The notes under the pieces were generated by a model. It did no database searches, was not told where the DNA came from, and worked only from the letters and a program-made list of their open reading frames with translations. 64,000 nucleotides of DNA from Psilocybe cubensis (taxonomy: Eukaryota): the NCBI GenBank assembly GCA_017499595.2, contig CM039000.1:1240001-1304000 (forward strand). The letters run 5' to 3'. A program made the position numbers and the translations under genes. Below, piece after piece: positions 49,896-64,000 of this stretch (within the stretch, counting starts at the first letter, position 1; each line of letters starts with the position of its first letter).

Positions 49896-51196
49896 ATTGA
49901 GAAATAGCTTTAACTGATATTGTTGATGTTTCCAAAAATTGTGCGGCTGGCAGTCGACCTTTAAAGGGCTTGACTTGTTTCAGGGGGAAGGTATGATTTG
50001 CACAACATCAACAACACATGCTCTTGATCTTCACAATGACTCATCGACATCGCCAATCTTGGTCACAACGCTATTTGAACCTCTATCAACTCTTCCCTTC
50101 AAATTATCTTCAGATCTAGCAATCCAAGGAATTCGGATTGCGAAGACGATCATATGAAGGACGAATAACCATAGCAAAACTCCAAACGATACACAATCCT
50201 ATGGTTACCAATGGCACCAATTTTTGGATCCGAAGTTGTGTATGCACATATCGATTCCAGGAAGAGCCCCCAAGGCGCATTACGAACGAACCAACCGGAA
50301 AATTGCTTAAGATTAAATGACTCGCCTCATCGAAGATAGAAAAATAACTTGTGTCCGTGGAACTGACAGGCAACAGTTACACAGTACTTATGGGCAGCGG
50401 TGAACCCACTCTGTCGAACAAGGATGCGTTGGAGATATCTTTCAGGAACTTCGGCAGTGGCATACAAGGACTCGTAGTCGCAAAACACCGTTGTAAACTC
50501 CATGGACTTTCAGGTCGCAAAATATAAATCTCCTTCTGCGAACTTGGCATACGATCTTATCGTCTAGACGGATATGGATCCCGAGCAAGATACCTTGTCT
50601 ATCTTCGCCGCTTACAATCCGCATAATCATTCGACTTTTTCATTCTCAGTTGCCGACTTCCCTGCAGGCTTCATTGTGGCATCTTTCAATCGACACCAGA
50701 CCGTTATTCAGCCGGGCAACTTGACCGTAACTTTTATCCCACAAACCCCACAAACAGGCCTAGCCAATGCGCAAATCAACGTTCTACTTCCTTCTATGCT
50801 CCGTATTTGTGGTCATGAGCTATTCTCCCTCCTATCCATGGGTTATGCGTTTCTATTGATCCATTAGGTGACTGGCATTCATATTCTCGCAGGACCGCTT
50901 TCAATACTAACTCACTTGGTCACATCAGCCTCTACAGACGCTTAAATTGTGAGTTAGATTGCATCTTTGACGTACTTACCGCCTATGGTCCCTCCGTCTA
51001 TCTCTTCTGTTGGTTAAACTAACGGCCATCATCCCAATAGACTAATCGAACTTCAACAAGTTGGTCCTATGTGCGGTGCTCCCTGGTTGTGGGGACCAGT
51101 ACAGGGGTTTGTTCTGATTGGGATGATATAAAGCCCATTTCAGGGATTTTCTTGCTCTCAACTCACCCGCTGAATTTCTCTAGTCATCACCCAACT

Positions 51197-51625
51197 ATGA
51201 AACTCATCGCTGCCCTTTCGTCGCTATTCTTTATGCCAGCTCTTGTCGCCGCAATCAGCGTCAGCTCGGACGCAGTCTACGATAATGCCGGACAGTCCCT
51301 TGCGTCTGTCGCCTGCTCAGATGGATCCTTTGGAATGTTAACCAGAGGTTTTACCACATTCAACTCGTTGCCCAAATTCCCTCATATTGGTGGTGCACCA
51401 TCCATCAAAGGGTACAATTCACCCGATTGTGGGTCATGCTGGAACCTCACGTACACCAACGCTGCTGGCATTCCAAAAACCATCAGCATCTTGGCCATCG
51501 ATCTCGCTACGCCAGACTTCAACATCGCGCAGTCTGCTTTCAGCGAATTGACTGGGGGAAACGTGGCCAGTGGACGAGTCCCGATTGTAGCCGTTAAAGT
51601 TGCACCTTCAGTTTGTGGATTGTAA
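51197..51625 (+). CDS. Cerato-platanin family secreted protein
   Basis: Signal peptide; YDN...VACSDG..GM...FNSLPKFPHIGG...YNSPDCGSCWNLTY...ILAID...FNIAQSAFSELTGG...CGL with four conserved Cys. Confidence 0.93.
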   Translation: MKLIAALSSLFFMPALVAAISVSSDAVYDNAGQSLASVACSDGSFGMLTRGFTTFNSLPKFPHIGGAPSIKGYNSPDCGSCWNLTYTNAAGIPKTISILAIDLATPDFNIAQSAFSELTGGNVASGRVPIVAVKVAPSVCGL

Positions 51626-52214
51626 GAAGATTATTCATATAAGCCAATGACTTATCACTGATTCCTTGATTTTCTGCAGGTAAACACTCTCTATCATACT
51701 AGTGGCTGCTAGGATATGATTTTTTGAATACTTGACGCTGGGCCACTTTTGAATATCTCGATTCAAATCGAATTTACTTTGCGCTTGAAATAAAGTTTGA
51801 AAATAAACTTCATGTCCTTTATCTAATATTCAAAATAAGGAGGGATCGAAAACAGATCACAGCTGTTAGCCGTTTTATGAGTACATAGTGCCGTGTGGAC
51901 TGGTTGTGGACAATGAAATGCTCCGTGTAGCCCCTAGATTTACGCCTTATTAGGTGCTCTGACGTCCCCTAAATAGCCGCGCTAACCATCAAAGAACAGA
52001 ACTCGGTGTAACCTCCATCTGAACTACTTAGATGGTGTTCCCTAACACACGACAGCAACGACAGCTCCTTTCAAAGAACCTCATCGTATCCATTGTTGGA
52101 AGATATAAGCAAGATAGCCTCATACCTCTGCCAGGCGTACCAATTGAAGTTCGCAAATTTCCCCTGAGTACCCGGATTCTGGTTCTTGAAAACTCAGCAC
52201 GGAAGAGACAAATA

Positions 52215-52244
52215 CAGTTGAACCCCTCTTAACCCATACCTCTC
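52215..52244 (+). repeat. Left terminal inverted repeat (30 bp)
   Basis: Exact reverse complement of 63922-63951. Confidence 0.95.
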
Positions 52245-52855
52245 AAAACCCATAACCCCTGGTAACCCATAGCATCAGCTGTCCACCAACTTGGTTCGCA
52301 GGGAATTGCACACCATAACCCATAAGTTCGCAATAACCCATAACCCATACCCCTTCACTCTCAAAACCCATAGGTTTTACCTACCATATATAGGCTGGGA
52401 CCTTTACTTTTGTGTCAAAATTTAGTACCCCGGTGGCTTATTTGGGTAAAGTACCACTGAAACCTCCTCGTAGCTACAAAAAATGAAAAAATTTCGCCGG
52501 AGGCTCAACACACTGGCTTGGAAACTTCGGCAATCATTCGGCAAAGAATTTTTCAACCCCGCTCTGTTCTTACCAAATACATCAGCAACATGGACAATCC
52601 TACACGGCGGGACCTTCGCCACTGTTTTTTTGGCGTCGATCGGAGTTACAAATAAATACGTTTAGATTTACAAAATAAAACCAAATTTAATACTGAAAAT
52701 TAGCATCCGTCGGCGATGTGTTTAGCCGCGTTAAAAATCACAAAATAACCAGTGCGTCAATGAGTCTCTGTTTTATAGCTTCAAATCCACTTCCTTACCA
52801 CAGTCGTGTTCTGATTCTTTTTTTTTGTGGCAGCTAATTTGACGGCAGCCTAATA

Positions 52856-55800
52856 ATGGTCTTCGGCATTGACCCTGCTGGTTAGTGACATCACTCTCGG
52901 TCCACCTTACTACTCGGCTGAATTAAGAATAGTCGTTCAACGACAAGTTGTACACGGTCAAACACTCTATTATTGCCGGGTCTGTCAAGATACAAAAGGT
53001 CGCCAAAAACACCACCTCAATGAGCACTTCAACACCACAAAACACCAAACAGCTCTGCAGGCATTTCATACCAAAGAGAAATCCTCTGCTTCTTCACAAA
53101 CCTCGTTGCCACCGGTTAACAAGTCCCTTTTGTTAGAGGACGCCTTACGTGCAATTCTTGTGTCTGCATCTCGTCAACCACACCAGCCTTTGTATCCTGC
53201 CAATGACCCTCGCCTTTCTAGGGTCTCGGCTGCACCTTCTTCAACCACTTCGTCGACGGTCTCTCCACTCACCGGGATTGACTGGAATCTATTCAACGAT
53301 GATGAAATTATGTCGGATCCATCTCCCATCGACTTTGCGTCTGCCCAAATATGTCAAGCTACTCTGGATTTTCTAAATTCTAATGACGAGAGTGATGGAT
53401 CTGATGATGGTGGTGGCAGTCCTCCGCTTTCTGAGAGTAGCGATGAGCAAGCCAATTCAGGTGTGTAACATCTAAATAGCGCATATTGTTTGAGTCCTTA
53501 ACTTTTAATCAGACACTGAACAAGTTGATAATGAATCTTTGCCCCGAAAACGTATGCGCGGTATTCACACCGACCCGGCTGAAGCTCGAAAATGGTATCC
53601 GTGGATTGATAAAATTGTGAGTCTTTGCCTGCCATTGGTTAGATTTTCTGCTCAATCAATAAATCAGACTTGTTCTCTTGACGTTTTGATGCACCTTCCA
53701 CGATCACTATTTTCACGTCGTCAGCTGGATTTATTTCTCTGGCTACTGCGTATCAATGGCGTCAACGATGTGCCTAGCATTAAGGCTATGCAAGGCATTA
53801 ACAAGGCATTGCAGAATTTGTGTGGAATTGAGACGAAGGAGTACAAGGGCAAGCTGGGCAATGTATACTTTGTAAATTCTCTGTCTCAAATTCTCGCCCA
53901 GGTATGAATCTATATGTTACAAATGAATACTTTTGATTTCTAACCAATCTGAATAGGAAATGTCTAATCCTCAAGTCCGACCGTTCCTTCACTTCTATCC
54001 TGAAGATACGGGCAAATCGATTAGCGAAACCTATCAAGCTTCGGGTTGGCTGCGTGAAATCAATCCTGAGGATGGTACTCCAATGATACGGCTCAATAAT
54101 AATGATTTTTTCATCTTTGAACCAACTATGCTGATTGATGGACGTTGCTGCATTCCTATTCGATGGTTTCTCCGAGAAGGTGTATTTTATGCCAAAGCCT
54201 GGCTTATGGAAGATACTCCTAGTGGTTGGGTTGTGTCCGAAGATCGCGAAATCGAAATCACGCAAAGCCAATTGCTAAAGAATTTTATTCAGTTGTCAAA
54301 GGATCACTTGTTGTATAACTTGTCACACCCTTCACGAATATTTGGTATGGACTATATTTTATATATTTTATTCAATTTCTTATAAGTAAACAGGTGTGCG
54401 ATCCAATTCGGGGCCTGGGCTGTCAAAATGGACACGTACAGATCCTACTATTGGCAATCGTTGGCGTGTATTAGCAAAGGGACACCGAGTCTATTCTCTG
54501 CCACTATGGATGTACTGTGACGATACGTCGGGAAACCAGTCCAAGAAGTGGAATAAGCACAACAGCTACCTATTTATTCTAGCTGGTCTTCCTCGCGAAA
54601 AGAGTTCACAAGAATACAATATCCATTTTCTGTGCACTTCAAATATTGCGCCACCTCTAGAAATGCTTGATGGTGTGGTTGATCAACTTCAGTAAGTTGT
54701 CACTATCTTATATTTGCTGCACATATTCTAATCATTTTAACTTCAGATTGGCTCAAAAACATGGTATTTGGGTATGGGACTGTATACACAAAGAGGCCGT
54801 TATGATTTTTCCACCTGTATTTGCACTTCTGGGTGACAACCCTATGCATAGCGAGTTTGCTTGTCATATTGGAATGCAAGGGAAATATTTTTGCCGGATT
54901 TGCTGGGCCAAAGGAGTCGACAGTCAAGAATGCCCACACAAAAATCTTCCACATGACAGTTGTGCTCGACCCAACTCTCCTACCCTTTCAATCCATAGTG
55001 ATGTTGATTCTGAAGATACCTTCACACGGCCTTCTCACAAACGGCGGAGGTACAAGGAGTCTATGGAGTCAATGCTTCGAAGGGTTAGTGATTTTATAAA
55101 GGTGCGTAAAAGTTGTTTTATAACAATTTATATTTTAATCACCTTTGATTCTAAGATTGGCAAACCGCGTCGCAAGAAAGAGACTATGGCTACTCTTGAC
55201 TCTTTTTTGGAGCAAGCTAAGATGATTGGCACAAAATCAAAACTTAGAGCTGCAAAAACGGAAACTGGCATCAAGGATGTTTTCCAGGACTTCTTTATTG
55301 AAAAGCTTTTCAAATCTTATAAGGGAAAAGTTTCTACTCAGGCAAAGGAAGAAGCTCTTAAAGCGGCTGTCGATAAGCTTCCTGGAGACATCAAAAGTCC
55401 CGTATGGAAACTTGGTGCGATTGAAATATTTTGCTTTAATTTACTAGCTAAATCTATATTCCAGGCTTGGATCCTCATCAGGACACTCCCGTCGAAATTC
55501 TGCATGTTGTATTGCTGGGTTTCGTTAAATATTTTTGGAGAGACCTAGTTCAAAATCAGGTTACTCCTGCTAAAAAGCAAACTTTGATTATTCGTTTAAA
55601 CAGCCTCAGTGTGGCAGGTCTAGGTGTACCCACATTAAATGGCTCCACACTAGTGAACTATGCCGGGTCACTAACTGGTCGCGATTTCCGAATTATTGCT
55701 CAAGTAGCGCCATTTGTCATCTACGACATGGTTTCTCAGGAGGTTTATGATGCATGGGTGTCCCTATCTACGTTAGTTCCGGTTATTTGGCAGCCAGCAA

Positions 55801-57271
55801 TCTCTAACATTGATGAGTACCTGGTGCGTCTTCATTGTGTCTTTCTTTAAATTGTTTTATTAAATTAAATCATGTTTTAGCCCAGATTAGAGGCCGACAT
55901 CAAATACTTTTTGTTGAAAACGGCAACATGGACCTGCGCGTGGTTTAACAAAACCAAATTTCACATTATTCTTCATCTTCCAGAACATGTCCGTCGGTTT
56001 GGGCCAGCAATATTGTTTGCCACGGAATCGTTTGAGTCATTCAATGCTATTATCCGTGCAAAAAGCATTCACAGTAATCACCAAGCACCTTCACATGATA
56101 TTGCCCGTGGCTTTGCGCAAGGCAATCGGATTCGCCATCTTCTTAGTGGTGGTTTTTTTCTTCCACAAGAGCTTTATCAGTCTTGGAAAAAGGATCCAAC
56201 AAATGTGGCTAATTCAGAGTGGCGCACTGCTGGACCTGGAGGTCTTCACCTTATTGATGCTCCAGACTCAACACCAGCTAGCTATTTGGGACTGCAGAAA
56301 CCTGCTGCCAGTAAGGCTGGTAAGTTATATTTACAAATCTATACTACTAGTGAGCGGTCTAATGCAATGGCCTAGGTTCATGCAAATCTAATGGCACAGA
56401 TCCTCAACCATTTCATCGCACATTATGTGGCCAAAAGCTTCCCAACATTGTGCTCAATACTGCAGCCAGCCAACAACTGTATGTAACCAATTCCCAGGTC
56501 TATCTGAGAAACGAGGATCTATGCACCATAGGACAGTTTGTCATTGCCCAAATTCATCCATCCCAGCCGCCTCTGATAGGGTGTGTTCGAGAGATCTTGC
56601 AGCAGGTTGGCTCTCCAAACCATCTTCAAAACCGGCCCGATGGTATTCTTATTCAAACAGCTTTACACCAACCGCCGTCGCACATATTGCCTGCTGGACA
56701 ACTGCAGCCAGTTTTTATGCCCCGTCTGATTCTTCAGCAGGAGTGGTCCTTCATTCCGTGGAGTTGCCTTCTTTGCACCGTAAATACTCAACATGACTGT
56801 CAACGTCATGGATGCCAGGCAAATGGGCTACAATACATCTATCAAGAGCGAATACAAACTGATCAGACTAAGGCAACGATACTGCATCAAAACTCATTGG
56901 ATGATATGCTCCTCCTCAATATGTGTCAAATGCGCGATGCTGCTCATCTCCAAAGTTTTCGCCTCCACTCTGCCCCGTTAAACGAAGATGCTATAATTCA
57001 AAGAAGTGTGGCTCAAGCCATTGTTCAACGGAAGGCAGGAGAAGCCTCCCAATCAAGTACTTCCAAACCAACCAAAACACCAACAGCCGCCTTGAGACAA
57101 CATGCCCAGAGCCCCTTGGGCACCCCTACTCTAGCAGCCACACCTTCTGGGGGTGTCAGTTTGCCTCAACATGCTTCAGCAGGAACATCTTCTGGAGGTG
57201 TTAGTTCACCTCGACGTAGCAGGCAAGCATCTGTGGTATATCCAGGTCAAATAACATTGGACTTTCGATAG
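52856..57271 (+). CDS. DDE transposase, CACTA/Mirage/Chapaev (CMC)-like, with N-terminal C2H2-type Zn finger; 11 exons, about 1,290 aa
   Basis: Ten GT-AG introns join the ORFs with no stop seen. Motifs: YYCRVCQ..HLNEHFNTTKH; MYCDDTSGNQSKKWNKH (D1); LLGDNPM (D2); FCRIC (CxxC); VEILH; KFHIILH (HxxxH); FATESFESFN (E); C-terminal NTQHDCQRHGC. Confidence 0.82.
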
Positions 57272-57324
57272 AAGTAAAACCATACTGTATTTATTTACTA
57301 GAATTCTACAAGAAGAATAGCAGA

Positions 57325-59662
57325 TCAAACTTGTCCAGAGACCTCAAACGCAGCTTTTGAAATAAGATCTTGTAAGGTGCACAACATGCCCAACCCCCTC
57401 TTCCATCGTGTTGGCCTAAGCTCCATTTGCTCTTGATAAAGCTTGGGGTTTGTACGTTTTAACTCCTTCTCGGTGCGGTAGCCATAATCAACCCATCTAA
57501 ACAGGCCACCTGAAGCATACTGAGTAAAGGAAGCACGCTCCTCTCCGTGTTCAATGCTGGTGTTTGAATGTTCTAGGACGGCGGACGGCATAAGGATGGT
57601 AGATCCTGCAGGGAACTCAATGGCCACTTTCAGGCCCCACACCACAAAGTGACCACCCTTTTTGGCATTGAATTTCCCTAAAGACTGGATGGCGCACCAG
57701 CCATATGGACAGTTTTTGATATCAAAATGCGGGATGGTGCAAACCACAGACCCTAGGTTGAAGGTGGCCGCCGGAAATATGCTGCGGCGAAACAGTCGGA
57801 CTAGCGTGGAGTCATTGGCGAATATCTTATCCATGTACAACTTATAGTGGTTGTACACTTTAGGGCTCCATGTAGCAAATGCACCTGTGGATGTGTTTAA
57901 AAACAGGTTCACAAAACAGGCATAGGGGTCACTTACTGCTGGCAAAACTGGCCATTCGTTGAATGCTTTCCGACTGCAAGAGCTTGGCAGTGATTTTGGG
58001 ATGGCGCTGGACGCGGTTGAGTGGAGAGTGTGTCCCTACACCGTGTGTAACGCCGATGTTGAGTGCGGGATAATGACCACGATTTTCTGAATAGTCTTCG
58101 TGTGTAAACGCTGTGGTGTGTCCGGCCTCCCTCAGTAGATCGAATGCTTCCTCCGTGGCACGTTCGTATGCAGGGTCCTTAGGACGGCCTGCCAGAACCA
58201 TAAAAATACGTCCGTCTTCAGAAACAAACGGGACGGGGGTGCTATAGTGCATTAGCTTTAACTCCATCAAACTGAACAGATCAGAACAGTTGTAACTCAC
58301 CATCCATCCCAAGGTATAATGCGGAACCCAAGGGCCTTGATGGCATCCAAGCTATATAGGTGACTTTTGTGGGGTTTTGTCGGTTTAGCACCATAGGCGC
58401 CTTGCGTGGCAGGCAAAGCGTCAAGCTTGACGTTGAGAGCCTCTGGCTGGCAGCTGGGAAGCATGCTTAAAAGACTGGGTTTTGGTGCGTGTCCGTGCTT
58501 ATTGTATTGTAACGTCCGCTGATACTTGCGGCTGCGATGACTGTTGGAAAGCCCATCGTATGGCCTTTTCAGGCTGGCGGTTTGCACGGATGGGTCTCGC
58601 TGAGGTAACAAAAGCGAAAGCTTGGTCGACGATTGCGAAGGTACAATCGGCGGTGTCGACATATCGTCAACCGATGGTGTCGACGCATCGTGGGCTGACA
58701 GCATCGACTCGCGGGTTGACGGGGTCGACGCGTTGTGGGCTGACGTCGTCGATTCGCGGGTTGACGGGGTCGACGCGTTATGGACTGACAGCATCGACTC
58801 GCGGGTTGACGGGGTCGACGCGTTGTGGGCTGACGTCGTCGATTCGCGGGTTGACGGGGTCGACGCGTTATGGACTGACAGCATCGACTCGCGGGTTGAC
58901 GGGGTCGACGCGTTGTGGGCTGACGTCGTCGATTCGCGGGTTGACGGGGTCGACACGTCGTGGATCGACGTCGTCGATTCGCGGGTTGACGGGGTCGACA
59001 CGTCGTGGATCAACGCCGTCGGCGTCGACGTATTGTTCGTAAACTGCGTCCAGGTATCGTCCGTCGACCGATTCTTCGACGCATCGTGGATCGACGGCGT
59101 CCAGATGTCGTGAACGGATGGCATCGACGTATCGTCGGTCGATGGAATCAAGACATCTATTGACAAGTACGTGAATGGGCAGATGACGAGTAGGCAAACA
59201 TGGTGACTCACCTTGATCCAGATCTAACAAGTCTGTGTCCTCCCTTGCATCTGCTGCCCGCCAGGCAGAGATCAAGTCAAAAGCCAACGGATCCTCCCAT
59301 ACCTCAGGCTGACACTGGGCATACACCCTCCCAGATCGTGTCTGCTTGAACAGATTTCCGATTTAAAACTCGGTATATGCATAGAAAAGTTTCCAAGGAC
59401 GTACCGTATAGCGCGCCCATTGGCAGGCCGACATCTGTGCATGCAAAAACCGACGGTGAGCAGGGTTCTTGCAATCACGACACGCCCCAGCTCCTGCGTT
59501 GGCTGGCAGTTTGACAGACCCGGCCCAGGGGTGATCCCTCGCCTGGCAAGCCTCTAACCAACGCGAGAGCTGGGCCCTGTCGCGTTTCTGATATACGAAC
59601 GTTTGCTTACCGGTGGGACGGGTATTTATACGAACGCGAATGAGGGGAATGTTGAACCTCAT
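57325..59662 (-). CDS. TET/JBP-family 2-oxoglutarate/Fe(II) dioxygenase (fungal transposon-associated type); 5 exons, start codon uncertain
   Basis: ..TRSGRVY..; IIPWDG/CTPVPFVSEDGRIFMVLAGRP; RGHYPALNIGVTHGVG; FPAATFNLG..TIPHFD (HxD); GWCAIQSLGKF..KKGGH; IEFPAGSTILMPSAVLEHSN (distal H); EERASFTQY (2OG-binding R); GGLFRWVDYG. Confidence 0.88.
58655..59015. repeat. Coding minisatellite: 7 x 45-bp units with 90-bp higher-order periodicity
   Basis: Core TCGCGGGTTGACGGGGTCGAC starts at 58709, 58754, 58799, 58844, 58889, 58934 and 58979. Encodes H(N/D)(A/V)STPSTRES(TTSA/MLSV) in the TET/JBP frame. Confidence 0.95.
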
Positions 59663-59911
59663 TAAACAGATCAGGGGTCAGGTGATAGGGGTCAGGTGAC
59701 GTAGGTGGACGCGTCGCACCCGCGACACACTTCAACTGCTTTGACCTCAGAACACCTGGTTATACGTCAGTCCGCTACAAACACAAACACCGCAGAGTAA
59801 TGCAGGTCTCAGGAATACTACCCAGGTGCGTTATATTTCATGCATCCCTTTTGTAAGGCCAAATTGACAATATAGTATTGAAAGTGCTGCAGATTCTATC
59901 TCACAAACCGT

Positions 59912-60815
59912 CTAAACAATAGCGATGGGATTGTCAGACTGCAAAGGCTGAGGAGGAATGTAAACCGGTACGTTAATGCCATGGGACGTCAACGCTGCTT
60001 TCAGCTGTTGGCTCCAATGCCTCTCTTCCACCAGCATAATTGCTGTGTTGTGTTCCTGTCTGACATATGTCCTCAACTGCTCTTCTAGACCCTCCACCAC
60101 CAACGTCAGGTATGCAGAGCGTCGTTTGGAATTCTTCACAGACCTAACCAAGTTTTTCACCGCCTTTTTAGTTGACTGGGCCTCCTGGCGTGCTGCGGCA
60201 AGGTCCAACCATGCCGTTCGAAGCTGATCCTTATAGGCCGCAGCTTCTCTTGTTGCCTCGATGGCTATTTCACGCCGAACAGTAATCTCTGCCTCCAGAT
60301 CGCGTCGGGAACGTGGATAGGCCCTGTTCAAGCCGATTGTGGTTTTGTGGCGAGGAACCTCGGAGGAATGGTCTAATAAAGTGGATGTGAGTGGTCTCAA
60401 CCTTTCACAGCAATACTGTCAACTTATGAAACGCACCATTCTTTTCAGGCATTTTGGATACAACCGGCTGGTCTTCGAGATCGCTTTGGCACGTTGATCC
60501 AGGAGTATCACCTAGTTGAGTTTGGATGGTGTAAGTTCAAGTGCGTTCGTGATAAGATTCTATTTACCAAGGCCGTAAAAACTGTAGTTGGGCAGACCAT
60601 CAGTAACGTCAAGCCCTACGGGTGGGAGGTCAGGGTAGGTTATGCTGAGGTTTAACAAGGTTTGTTTACTGACCTGCATTCAGAGTTGACAGGTACTTTT
60701 TAGGTGCCTCATCGTCTTCATCTTGGTTGTGCTTCCTGAAACTTTTTTTTGGCGATGGAGTCTTAGGCGACAGCAGGCGGGATGGTAGACAATTGTCAAG
60801 AGTGTTGGTAGACAT
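59912..60815 (-). CDS. Transposon passenger gene: coiled-coil protein of unknown function, multi-exon
   Basis: ATG 60815 MSTNTLDNCLPSRLLSPKTPSPKK...; plausible GT-AG introns; last exon has heptad-rich RRDLEAEITVRREIAIEATREAAAYKDQLRTAWLDLAAARQEAQ. Confidence 0.6.
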
Positions 60816-60964
60816 GTTGAGCGGTTCAAGATAACGAAACCACACAAATATCAGACTGATGGTTAAGGGAGTGAGAGAGTGAGACAAAAGGTGAGCAAAC
60901 CTTTGGAATAACTTTGACGCCTCCTTTTTATGTGACGCGTAGGTTTGTTGTTGTCGACGTGACA

Positions 60965-61030
60965 CGACGCGAATTGTTGATTGACCTCGAACGCGACGCG
61001 AATTGTTGATTGACCTCGAACGCGACGCGA
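60965..61030. repeat. 29-bp tandem repeat (2.3 copies) in the divergent intergenic region
   Basis: CGACGCGAATTGTTGATTGACCTCGAACG at 60965-60993 and 60994-61022, plus partial CGACGCGA. Confidence 0.9.
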
Positions 61031-61113
61031 TTCGTTTGTTGTGGCAAACATGGCAAATCAAACTTGGGGTATAAAAGCAAGGTAAGAGACGTTTGCTTGA
61101 TTCTGAATCCACA

Positions 61114-62674
61114 ATGTCTCATTCTTCGATTGACCCAGCTTTTGCATCACAGCCTGTTTCTCGTGACGTGGACCGCCCAACTGGTACACAGCTGTTTATT
61201 GACAACCTGGTTCACCGATTCAACCTCACAAGCGACCACAGTGCAGATCTCACTTTTCTTTATCAGGTAAACTTGTTTTTTACATAACGCCTACATCAAA
61301 CTGCTTCTAACTCGTAAACCCGCAGATCTGTACAGCCGTGCCTGAAGAGCAACCTCCTTACACCGAAGTGATAAGTCGAATCATGATGTTGGCCTGCCAG
61401 TTTGGGGCCGAAGTTCGTCTGCATAAAGCACTGACTGCCACGCAAACACATCTACAAGGACTCGGGCAGCTGAGCAGTTTTTTGGCTGATTATGAGCTGC
61501 AAAAAGATGAGAACTTTGTGTTATCAAACGCACAAAAGGTGAGTCATTGTTTGCCTTTATGAACACGGTGGTCTGAGCCAGCTTTTAGATGGCCATTAAA
61601 TCAACCTGTATCAAAGAGCTTCTAAAGCCCTCTAGACAGTCCTTTAAGACGCTTCACATCGATGTTGAGGTGCGTTCTTTTCACTTTAATTGGCGGTCTA
61701 AAACAAATGCATTTGCAGGCAAAGATGAAAAAAAAGCCCGCAGACAATTACCTTGACAACATCCTGAATCGGCTGGGACGTGAGGCCAAATGGATGGCGC
61801 ATATACGAACCGTTTGTACGATTCAGAGAAACACGCTTCGAAAAGAGGTGTGTGGTTGTCCGGTTTACCATATGCCGTGTACTGATGTGTGAAATTAAAG
61901 ATCATACAAAGCATAACTCCAGGCCCAAAGTTTACTTCTGTGCAAGAATTTGCGGCGGGCCTCATTGTGAAATATCGTCTGCCTACGTCAGAGTCTGGTG
62001 CAAATTCCAACACAGCTTACCTCTCAAAACATGTGTTATTGGTGTGTCTTCAATATTTCTGATTCAAAAAGTTTCACTAACGTGGCAATGTAAAGCGGCG
62101 GTTTTTCTGGGACCATTCATCTACGTTTTCGGCCTTTGAACTTGAGAAGGATGACAACAACTCAGAAGAGGAGAACAATGACCAGGATTTTGGAACACCA
62201 AGCACCGACAACTCTAGCGATTCGGGTCATTCTGCTACCAAAAAACGTAAATTGCAAAAAACAAACATTCCCGCTGGGAAAACTCGCGGTCGGGTGGCTG
62301 ATGGCGAAGACTATTGGTCCAAAGTTGATCAATGGCTCAAGAGGCTTGACGATGAGCTGGGAGATAATACAGCTGAGTTGAAACAGTCCGAGTTTTCTCT
62401 TGTATTCTCAATGAGTTATGCTAAGCTTGTGAATAGATTTATTGCTGAATGTCTGGAGATGGACTCTCTCAGGACCAATAAAGGCTTAGATTTCTCAAGC
62501 CACCCTTCCGAGCGCTCTTTTACCAGCCCTAGCAATGTCACATCCGACCCACAACCCACCACTATACAGTCCTTTCCTTCCAATTCTTCTTCGAGGCTGC
62601 CTGAACCTCATTTAAATTTTGGTAATGCAATTGCTCAATTATTTAGTGGTCCTTCAACAGGTAGACCTTTTTAG
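61114..62674 (+). CDS. Transposon passenger gene: unknown, probably helical protein with acidic/basic tract, multi-exon
   Basis: MSHSSIDPAFASQP..LFIDNLVHRFNL..LYQ/ICT..; ENFVLSNAQK/; HIRTVCTIQRNTLRKE/; acidic EKDDNNSEEENND, NLS-like KKRK, GRVADGEDYWSKVDQWL; GT-AG introns of about 50-60 bp. Confidence 0.6.
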
Positions 62675-63148
62675 CCACTAGACTCCACTACAATATAGTT
62701 ATTAATTATGCGGAAATGTATGTGTAAACGCAACTAAATCTGAAGTTGATGTTGAGAACATGTAGCCCCTAATATTCAGTTTGCTAGTGTTTGGCACCGG
62801 TGATCATTTGATCAACAGCAACGAGTTATCGCTTTCATCTTTTCCTCCATGATCTCGCACAGCGGCACCGTGTTTTCCGCCGTGCATTGTTAAGAGATCC
62901 AGCCCTTTCATGTACTAAAAGCCATGCACTGGAAAGATCCAGATTCCCAATATGTGGGAACGCGTTGAGCGGCATGGTTGGGCATAGTTTTTTTTTGGTG
63001 ACTGACATTTGATTTGTAGATCGCGCACTGGTGCAAGAACCTGCTTATTGCTGAGTATTTTTAGACAGCTATCCATGGCGAAAATTACTTATTTTAACAC
63101 CACAGGTTCAAGAATATGTGCTTTGAAGTTTGACAAGGTCCAAGAACA

Positions 63149-63307
63149 CCATTGCCGGAATCGATAGCCATCGTCGACACCATAGTTTGGCTCTGGAGAA
63201 TGGGTGATAGTTGGATGCGCAACACAACATCGTCAACGCCATAGCCGGAATCGATCGCCATCGTCGACACCATAGTTTGGCTCTGTGGAATGGGTATTTG
63301 TGGATGC
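63149..63307. repeat. Imperfect direct duplication (about 70 bp, 90-bp period) inside the transposon
   Basis: GCCGGAATCGAT(A/C)GCCATCGTCGACACCATAGTTTGGCTCTG..GAATGGGT starts at 63154 and again at 63244. Confidence 0.85.
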
Positions 63308-63921
63308 AATAACCCAGTGAGTACTTTATAGGATAGACGTTAGATTAGTAGTTATTTAGCTTCAGCTTCATGCTCAATATATGGTGTTTTATTATAACCT
63401 AATCTTGTATGAAAGACCAAAAATAAAATTTCACAATGATATTATACTGTGAATACATATGAAAAGCCTACAAAAAAATATGTATTTGCTAGAATGTGGC
63501 TGACACAAACGGTGCTTGGCACTTATGTGGCAGCCACATGAATTTCGGCCTGTTGTGTCACCCACTGATATCGGATGGAGGTGGCAGACACATGTTTATT
63601 TGTGTCTGACATACATCGGCCAAACACATCCAAAAATGTGTCCAGCGGCCGCCTGTGTACTGCCCGTACAATTGAAACACTTTTGGACTCATTAAATAGA
63701 AAACTGTACCTTGAAGAGCCAGAACAATGAAAGATACTGTAGTAACTGATTATTTTAGATCATAGCTAGTAGTACCTTGAATGTATCTAATTAGTATCCG
63801 TCTTATCATCGAGGAATTTTTTGTGTATTTTTAACGATTTTTTCGCGAATTTTCAGGCCTGTATTTAGCATACCTCCTGAAACCCATAACCCCTGATAAC
63901 CCATACCCTGAGCCGTCCACC

Positions 63922-63951
63922 GAGAGGTATGGGTTAAGAGGGGTTCAACTG
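63922..63951 (-). repeat. Right terminal inverted repeat (30 bp)
   Basis: GAGAGGTATGGGTTAAGAGGGGTTCAACTG followed by TA. Confidence 0.95.
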
Positions 63952-64000
63952 TATACCTGGAAATGCATAATATCGAAGGGTGGTGAGGGCACGCGTTCGG

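Follow-up and report, generated by a model that had tools for sequence, protein, structure and literature searches.

What is an 11.7-kb unit with perfectly matched inverted ends, a transposase, and a putative DNA-base dioxygenase, and does it still move? The question is raised by a 64,000-nucleotide stretch of contig CM039000.1 (assembly GCA_017499595.2, positions 1,240,001 to 1,304,000), hereafter the window, in which positions 52215-63951 hold four spliced genes enclosed between terminal inverted repeats (TIRs). Very probably the unit is a DNA transposon of the cut-and-paste kind, 11,737 bp long, that is intact, carries a gene of the TET type, and has moved recently. Psilocybe cubensis is the most likely host, the encoded TET protein being the same, residue for residue, as that of JR316_0003207 in this species. 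The sections of evidence that bear on this answer are the ends and the target site, the copies of the element in other strains, the transposase, and the dioxygenase, and they differ in how firmly they speak.

Where exactly does the element begin and end? An inverted repeat of 33 nt, 100% complementary, joins 52212-52244 to 63922-63954 and is made up of a 30-nt TIR plus a palindromic ATA/TAT. The TIR core, CAGTTGAACCCCTCTTAACCCATACCTCTC, occupies 52215..52244 on the plus strand, where it starts with 5'-CAG, and 63922..63951 on the minus strand, where the element ends in CTG-3'. The two are perfect matches, and the termini in full read CAGTTG..CAACTG. When up to 3 mismatches are allowed, the core has exactly 2 matches in the 64-kb window, against 0.00 expected from 100 shuffles, so that no copy beyond the element's own two was found there. 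Because ATA/TAT is palindromic, these letters are equally compatible with a target-site duplication (TSD) of TA, giving CAG..CTG termini, or of AT, giving ACAG..CTGT. The empty allele decides between them: its joint, 52212->63952, has 2 letters common to both sides, and the TSD is therefore TA, the left copy lying at 52213..52214 and the right copy at 63952..63953, with the 11,737 bp of 52215-63951 in between. Inside both ends are subterminal repeats. On the left (52221..52372, plus strand) these consist of 7 copies of AACCCATA at 52231-52372 and an array with a 16-nt period at 52221-52271, and on the right (63869..63935) of 3 copies at 63881-63935 and a second array of 16-nt period. The motif AACCCATA would be expected 1.86 times in the window and has 12 matches there, 10 of which are within the two element ends.

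The empty site comes from a comparison of four public sequencing runs over window positions 50000-64000, in which X11 consists of raw reads and X8 and X9 of contigs. The joint skips 11,739 bases and is present in three of the four runs, from three studies. It is carried by 24 reads with 18 starts in X11, by one 11,520-nt contig in X8, and by one 57,496-nt contig in X9. The joined sequence, GAGACAAATATACCTGG, is letter for letter the empty site foreseen in the original prediction, which had been made from the DNA letters and had also proposed the perfect 30-bp TIRs and the TA duplication at these positions. With TIRs, a TSD, and a matching empty site all in place, the element is a class II TIR DNA transposon of the cut-and-paste kind.

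Do the strains that lack this insertion also lack the element? They do not. Contigs of X8 and X9 match the window interior at 52601-58724, 58970-60994, and 61001-63660 with 1, 0, and 0 letters different, or 1 difference per 10,810 nt, whereas the flank is ~3% diverged. Over 50000-52212, 64-65 substitutions and 21-24 gaps separate the same runs from the window (~3-4%). Since the interior is near-identical even though the insertion is lacking and the flank has diverged, the whole unit must be present elsewhere in those strains. How many copies are there? In X11, the raw-read depth of the interior is ~28.3 (mean of 23 bins) compared with 24.8-30.9 in the flank, which indicates about one full-length copy elsewhere. 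Interior and flank depths are 268-344 and 88.5 in X8, and 82-98 and 41.8 in X9, figures that are contig depth and not copy number; in both runs the depth is even over all four genes. The X8 and X9 contigs break at 58724-58970, a 45-nt repeat in the TET gene, and at 60994-61001, a 29-nt repeat between genes 3 and 4. A divergence of ~3-4% directly beside the insertion is high for strains of one species.

The end bins of X11 reach depths of 128 and 139, and this excess is due to an internal-deletion derivative. A joint 52600->63658 (left breakpoint 52600..52600, right breakpoint 63658..63658) skips 11,057 bases across a 3-letter microhomology and leaves a 680-bp form with the same ends as the full-length element. 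It is represented by 140 reads with 61 starts in X11 and by contig depths of 372.7 in X8 and 326.8 in X9. Two rarer deletion joints were also seen, each with 5 filler letters. In addition, reads from other copies run into the element from foreign DNA and begin to match directly outside the TA on both sides: on the left, they match from 52213 (84 reads) or 52212 (43 reads), and on the right the agreement stops after 63953 (169 reads) or 63954 (22 reads). The consensus agreement among these loose ends is low, 0.40-0.52 in the large groups, so they represent many different flanks, that is, many other insertion sites, most of them keeping the TA. Thus the TIR-bounded unit moves in one piece, duplicating the 2 bp of a TA target on insertion and giving rise to deletion derivatives. 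The near-identical copies at other loci and the non-autonomous derivatives that had been anticipated were both found in the compared runs, and recent mobility, claimed at the outset, is borne out by the empty allele together with the near-identical interior copies. The autonomy proposed along with it is putative.

Three observations weigh against a simple account of recent movement. The three runs with the empty site share nearly one flank haplotype (64-65 differences from the window) and are possibly a single lineage rather than three independent witnesses; the filled junction is known from the window assembly alone; and at position 54405, in exon 6 of the transposase gene, one base is missing in 20 of 46 X11 reads, at the place where P0001, a P. 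cubensis protein from UniRef, leaves the family consensus. Some copies of the element are therefore probably frameshifted at 54405, while the window copy is open. Could the window copy, then, be intact but inactive, an old segregating insertion whose near-identical relatives are orthologous loci shared by descent? The frameshift allele and the X11 depth, which amounts to roughly one full-length copy, would suit such a history. It would have to accommodate 1 difference in 10,810 nt of interior next to a flank that differs by about 3% in the same runs, several distinct deletion derivatives, two of them with the filler letters typical of post-excision repair, and element ends adjoined by many different flanks. 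We regard it as very unlikely.

A different objection is that host genes, a host TET gene among them, came by chance to lie between two short non-autonomous elements that now mobilize them, which would make the unit a composite. The 680-bp derivatives are indeed far commoner than the long form. The empty site, on the other hand, lacks all 11,737 bp plus one TA and retains no inner ends, no third TIR copy exists in the window, inside lies a complete transposase whose superfamily type matches, and simple deletion of the long form accounts for the short ones, the main joint showing 3 letters of microhomology. This explanation is scarcely credible next to that of a single mobile unit.

Two further properties of the DNA may be recorded here. 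With observed-to-expected CpG ratios of 0.85 for the element and 0.87 for the remaining window, no CpG depletion was found in the element, relative to that remainder, as a sign of methylation-driven decay. X11 differs from the window at 187 places over 50000-64000; C>T accounts for 67 of them and G>A for 51, together 118, an excess of transitions.

Which protein is likely to move the element? The four gene models were built from homology to annotated proteins and from splice consensus and are therefore predictions. All four are open, in the order and orientation first proposed (transposase rightward, dioxygenase and coiled-coil gene leftward, and a fourth gene rightward), and the transposase and TET frames proved as free of stops as had been said. 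The transposase gene (52856..57271, plus strand) has 11 exons separated by 10 GT..AG introns of 49-57 nt and encodes 1294 amino acids with no internal stop, 1257 of which are identical in P0001. The two proteins differ structurally at residues 417-430, and there the window reading matches the family consensus Y..P.PS.I. Homologues are numerous, with 64 found in Agaricomycetes, and 47 homologues, from many members of that class, were aligned (A1) and their motifs read off by eye. Near the N terminus is a C2H2 zinc-finger motif read from the model (C23, C26, H36, H40; 52974..53027, plus strand), a region that resembles SF3a60_Prp9_C weakly and below threshold (E 0.0021). The candidate catalytic core follows on the same strand. 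A first pair of aspartates, D469/D470 in YCDDTSGN (54519..54524), is nearly invariant in A1. The second aspartate, D556 in LLGDNP, is invariant and is followed by C575-x2-C578, both cysteines being nearly invariant (54835..54903). Lastly, H878-x3-H882 precedes E899 in FATESFESFN (55962..56027), the glutamate invariant and both histidines nearly so.

This order of conserved residues, D, D, CxxC, HxxxH, E, is described as the signature of the CACTA/EnSpm, Mirage, Chapaev, and Transib (CMCT) clade in the main text of Kojima 2025 (PMC12730594), and it was with that description, not with Figure 4 of the paper, that the motifs in A1 were compared. A CMCT element is also expected to have 5'-CA..TG-3' termini and duplications of 2-5 bp, and this one has CAG..CTG and a 2-bp TA. 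The predicted fold points the same way. In an AlphaFold model of the homologue P0002 (mean predicted local distance difference test [pLDDT] 79.6, predicted template modeling score 0.80), residues 58-807 match RAG1 with a Z score of 15.1 (434 residues aligned, root-mean-square deviation [rmsd] 4.7), the amphioxus RAG1-like protein BbRAGL with Z 14.3, and HzTransib with Z 9.8. The top 30 Foldseek matches are all RAG1 chains, the best with E 2.7e-5. One point tells against leaning too hard on this fold and belongs beside it: the model is of a homologue, 55% identical to P0001 (alignment A3), and not of the window's own protein. The 47-sequence profile, searched against the sequences in PDB, returned low-complexity matches only. 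On the residue pattern and the homologue's RAG1/Transib-like predicted fold, the transposase nonetheless belongs to the CMCT clade and not to KDZ or Pfam-defined Plavaka.

That placement departs from the original prediction, which had set the element in the context of Kyakuja/Dileera/Zisupton (KDZ) and Plavaka transposases; neither is the type found here. Neither the window transposase exons nor 12 distinct homologues (6 searched at E<=0.01, 8 at E<=10) matched the Pfam KDZ or Plavaka models, and no KDZ, CxC1, or CxC2 domain was found in the window transposase or in the homologues scanned with Pfam. KDZ was set aside on this ground and because the duplication is 2 bp, not 7-8 bp. Might the transposase still be a Plavaka of subgroup A or an ordinary fungal EnSpm/CACTA, in a family already catalogued under another name? 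PlavakaA duplications are 2 bp, and TET-carrying Plavaka and EnSpm elements are present in Agaricales, according to the main text of Kojima 2025 (PMC12730594). Two plant CACTA families, Transposase_21 (E 0.098) and DUF4218 (E 0.11), are matched below threshold by one homologue of the 12, P0035, and the transposase C terminus gives weak Atlas leads to DUF6830 and DUF4216 (the latter with a score of 0.78). Plavaka was rejected on the 0 of 12 homologues matching its Pfam model and on termini that read CAGTTG..CAACTG, not TGT..ACA (A) or CATCA..TGATG (B), and EnSpm/CACTA proper on a duplication of 2 bp and not 3 (here TA), termini of CAG..CTG and not CAC..GTG, and domain matches that stay below threshold in the 1 homologue of 12. 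A catalogued family under another name is somewhat unlikely, we believe, though a possibility to be taken seriously. The transposase comes closest in description to ESTA, an EnSpm-like group with TA duplications, a likeness drawn by description alone.

The last transposase exon (56376..57271, plus strand) encodes a C-terminal beta-rich domain and a disordered tail, and in the P0002 model this domain looks BAH/Tudor-like. Residues 829-985 of P0002 match the BAH domains of EBS, TNRC18, ORC1, MET1, and DNMT1 with Z 9.3-9.9, and residues 142-291 give a weaker BAH-like match with Z 7.1-8.1, all values that lie near the aligner's stated background for unrelated folds; Foldseek lists DNMT1 BAH1 with E 1.1e-3. 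A BAH/Tudor-like chromatin-reader domain may thus be present in this transposase family, and it is put forward here as a lead only. In the literature on transposase, RAG1, and Transib, the term "BAH domain" was not found in the papers matched. A chromatin reader on a transposon that carries a TET gene would, if true, be notable.

Next to the transposase, on the minus strand, lies the gene for a TET/JBP-like 2-oxoglutarate (2OG)-Fe(II) dioxygenase (57325..59434), with 5 exons and an open frame of 627 amino acids identical to P0065, the protein of JR316_0003207. Its predicted catalytic residues H494-x-D496, H547, and R558 (57535..57729, minus strand) are invariant or nearly so in an alignment of 20 sequences (A2), and of the 20 homologues at least 90% keep HxD. 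Is it truly a TET? Taken by itself, the sequence would identify only a 2OG-Fe(II) oxygenase, and several results weigh against the narrower assignment. The window dioxygenase scores 20.3 bits with Pfam Tet_JBP, below the cut-off of 34.9; P0065 itself has no match to that model; among the 20 homologues, 7 match 2OG-FeII_Oxy_3 and 3 match Tet_JBP, all weakly, the best Tet_JBP match having E 3.7e-4. Neither phmmer nor the 20-sequence profile reached a solved TET in PDB at E<=10. When positions are simply counted from the HxD histidine, those of Gly331 and Asp337 in CcTet are N and C here. The assignment rests on the predicted fold, and there the separation is wide. The model has pLDDT >90 across most of residues 320-627 and <50 over residues 46-251. 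It matches CcTet with Z 22.4 (279 residues aligned, rmsd 3.7; Foldseek E 5.8e-12), NgTET1 with Z 19.0, human TET2 with Z 18.2, and CMD1 with Z 12.8, compared with 11.7 for the best non-TET 2OG oxygenase, FTO, and 10.6 for prolyl hydroxylases. In these structural matches, the identity to solved TETs is 9-15% and to CcTet 9-12%. With the Fe(II) and 2OG ligands kept and the modeled fold decisive, the second gene is, on prediction, a TET/JBP dioxygenase. The identity first given to this gene thus has the support of the predicted fold and lacks that of sequence.

What kind of TET would it be? In the scheme of Kojima 2025 (PMC12730594), as set out in its main text, agarics have two types, AG and PE. 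The AG type was rejected because no sequence match to the TETs in PDB was obtained at E<=10 and the Asp337 position, by the same simple count, is C; the PE type was rejected because the motif is HxD and not the hallmark HxE. By its residues, the protein appears to lie outside the stated hallmarks of both agaric types. Its disordered N-terminal half contains 15-amino-acid repeats rich in S, T, and P, encoded by 7.3 copies of a 45-nt tandem repeat (58679..59008, minus strand). The public models P0065 and P0066 disagree in how many repeats they have.

The association of this TET with a transposase is not confined to one element. P. cubensis has a TET paralogue, P0067, 58% identical, that adjoins a transposase paralogue, P0005, 45% identical over the query exon, the two carrying the consecutive locus tags JR316_0004416 (transposase) and JR316_0004415 (TET) and being recorded on contigs of equal length. 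The existence of this diverged pair indicates that the pairing is older than the split of the two families. In another agaric, Arthromyces matolae, the 1496-amino-acid annotated protein P0083 unites a TET homologue (41% identity) with KDZ and CxC2 domains, so that KDZ elements, too, are accompanied by this type of TET.

How might the parts work together? The transposase would bind the TIRs and the subterminal AACCCATA repeats, and, as an enzyme of the DDE type, would cut the element out and reinsert it at TA with a 2-bp stagger. RAG1 and Transib transposition passes through a hairpin on the flanking DNA. In plant En/Spm (CACTA) elements, short subterminal repeats, at least two proteins encoded by the element, and plentiful derivatives with internal deletions go together with 3-bp duplications and CACTA termini. 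The element described here resembles En/Spm in the first three respects, with its short repeats at both ends, and differs in the last two; by analogy with TnpA of En/Spm, the product of gene 3 or gene 4 could be an accessory end-binding factor, and no homology to TnpA was found in either gene. The catalytic region of the transposase likewise resembles RAG1, ProtoRAG, and Transib in predicted fold (the Z scores of 15.1, 14.3, and 9.8 given above) and in zinc-binding C/H motifs between the catalytic D and E. The differences are that the element has no RAG2-like partner gene, that its transposase family has extra beta-rich domains not in the solved cores, and that its duplication is not the 5 bp of Transib.

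The TET, finally, is putatively the element's means of escaping silencing: it would oxidize 5-methylcytosine (5mC) on or near the element and so counter methylation. This anti-silencing idea is the hypothesis of Kojima 2025, according to which the function of transposon-borne TETs has had no experimental test so far (PMC12730594, main text), and the element offers a practical test case, as considered below. A mobile element could also carry a TET that does not protect it. The enzyme might have another substrate, such as 6-methyladenine (6mA) or thymine, might act genome-wide or in the timing of transposition, or might be a passenger kept by drift. CcTet also oxidizes 6mA, and in Coprinopsis and Laccaria transposons of many kinds bear oxidized 5mC, as stated in the same main text (PMC12730594); the counted Gly331 and Asp337 positions differ in this TET, which shares just 9-15% identity with the solved ones. 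Such a reading would be harder to reconcile with a frame that is open and identical in two sources, catalytic residues kept in 20 homologues, a second, diverged family with the same transposase/TET pairing, and a TET depth equal to the transposase depth in X8 and X9. On this balance, a TET without a self-protective role is unlikely, and self-protection is preferred as the working model. A more ambitious version is also conceivable, in which the element would represent a separate agaric branch of RAG1-like CMCT transposons that has a fourth, unnamed TET type (HxD, unrelated in sequence to CcTet) and a transposase with BAH/Tudor-like readers, reading as well as erasing silencing marks, and still jumping. 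Taken as a whole, that version is distinctly doubtful.

How much of this is new? Complete TET-carrying transposons with termini and TSDs are already described in 11 lineages by Kojima 2025, including ESTA (rusts, RAG1-like, TA duplication) as well as Plavaka and EnSpm in Agaricus, and some of the TET-carrying families have third genes (PMC12730594, main text). The original prediction had suggested that the combination of transposase type, ends, TA duplication, and four-gene architecture might be novel. Both the TET-transposon phenomenon and the anti-silencing idea being known, that novelty is largely pre-empted by what the paper's main text reports (PMC12730594). What is added here is that the host is new, that a CMCT element duplicating TA occurs in an agaric, that its TET appears to fall outside the AG and PE hallmarks, and that population data give evidence of recent movement. 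Psilocybe is not mentioned in the main text of PMC12730594, a literature search returned no paper combining Psilocybe, transposase, and TET, and a search at the level of titles turned up no description of this element in the literature on P. cubensis transposons.

Among the described systems, three invite close comparison. (i) ESTA shares the TA duplication, a transposase that is RAG1-like by remote similarity, and a TET/JBP gene inside complete ends; it differs in occurring in rusts and in carrying a PU-type TET, where the present element has an agaric host and a different TET (likened by the main-text description in PMC12730594 alone). (ii) The Plavaka A and B elements, of which TET-carrying PlavakaB is known from Agaricus bisporus and Gymnopus confluens, share a CMCT transposase, Agaricales hosts, duplications of 2 or 2-3 bp, and, in some families, a TET; they differ in their TGT..ACA or CATCA..TGATG termini, as against CAG..CTG, and in PlavakaB TETs that are of the PE type with HxE, as against HxD. 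(iii) The Kyakuja TET transposons, with CcTet of Coprinopsis cinerea (AG type), share an agaric, transposon-borne TET with HxD, CcTet being the best structural match; they differ in having a KDZ transposase and 7-bp duplications without TIRs, and the present TET has no detectable sequence similarity to CcTet. If phylogeny confirms the link to ESTA, the RAG1-like, TA-duplicating group would extend from rusts to agarics.

The value of the element as a test case lies in its assets: a full-length copy with open frames, a filled/empty polymorphism, near-identical copies elsewhere, TET-less 680-bp derivatives, and a cultivable fungus. A contrast of 5mC and oxidized 5mC between full-length copies and derivatives would bear on whether the transposon erases its own silencing marks.

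The two remaining genes are more enigmatic. Gene 3 (59912..60815, minus strand) has 4 exons and encodes a predicted coiled-coil protein of 241 amino acids that ends in a stop; when proteins of 92-294 amino acids were searched, it had 3 homologues, all from P. cubensis. The public model P0066 joins gene 3 to the TET gene. They are read as separate here because the N terminus of the TET, M..C.[WY]AR[YF]T.TRSGR, is conserved in the 58%-identical paralogue. Gene 4 (61114..62674, plus strand) is multi-exon, with candidate starts at 61114, 61386, and 61662; its 5' exons are uncertain, and public models differ in the first exon. Among 1.84 billion representative sequences, gene 4 has 5 matches at E<=0.001, of which 2 are near-identical and 3 weak. 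Pfam has no family for gene 3 or gene 4. For gene 4, the Atlas pointed to DUF6532 with a score of 0.92 and 130 shared features, a lead dropped as not confirmed by Pfam. As judged by similarity searches, genes 3 and 4 are orphans, almost without relatives beyond P. cubensis. Between the two, which are divergently oriented, lies a 29-nt tandem repeat of 2.4 copies with 97% matches (60962-61030).

The element sits in gene-dense DNA among housekeeping genes. Positions 1-52000 of the window encode an oxidoreductase dependent on flavin adenine dinucleotide (FAD), an aldo/keto reductase, a Rad51-like protein, Vps36/EAP30, DNA polymerase epsilon subunit B, and a pyridoxal phosphate (PLP) enzyme, and hold no further TIR copy. 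The nearest neighbor is a spliced plus-strand gene at 50246-51794, ~420 bp upstream of the insertion, where depth rises to 2021 in X13, a run guessed to be RNA. Of the X13 joints in this gene, 51621->51680 has GT..AG ends and 50512->50571 has GG..CG ends. Over the element, X13 has a depth of 0 in the interior bins (52335-63542) and touches it at the two TIRs only, which bears neither way on expression. At the left TIR, a 36-nt piece (52211-52242) has a depth of 5000; at 63924-63953, a 2,630-nt contig begins with the 30-nt TIR and continues into unrelated sequence. TIR-bearing copies elsewhere may be transcribed within other transcripts.

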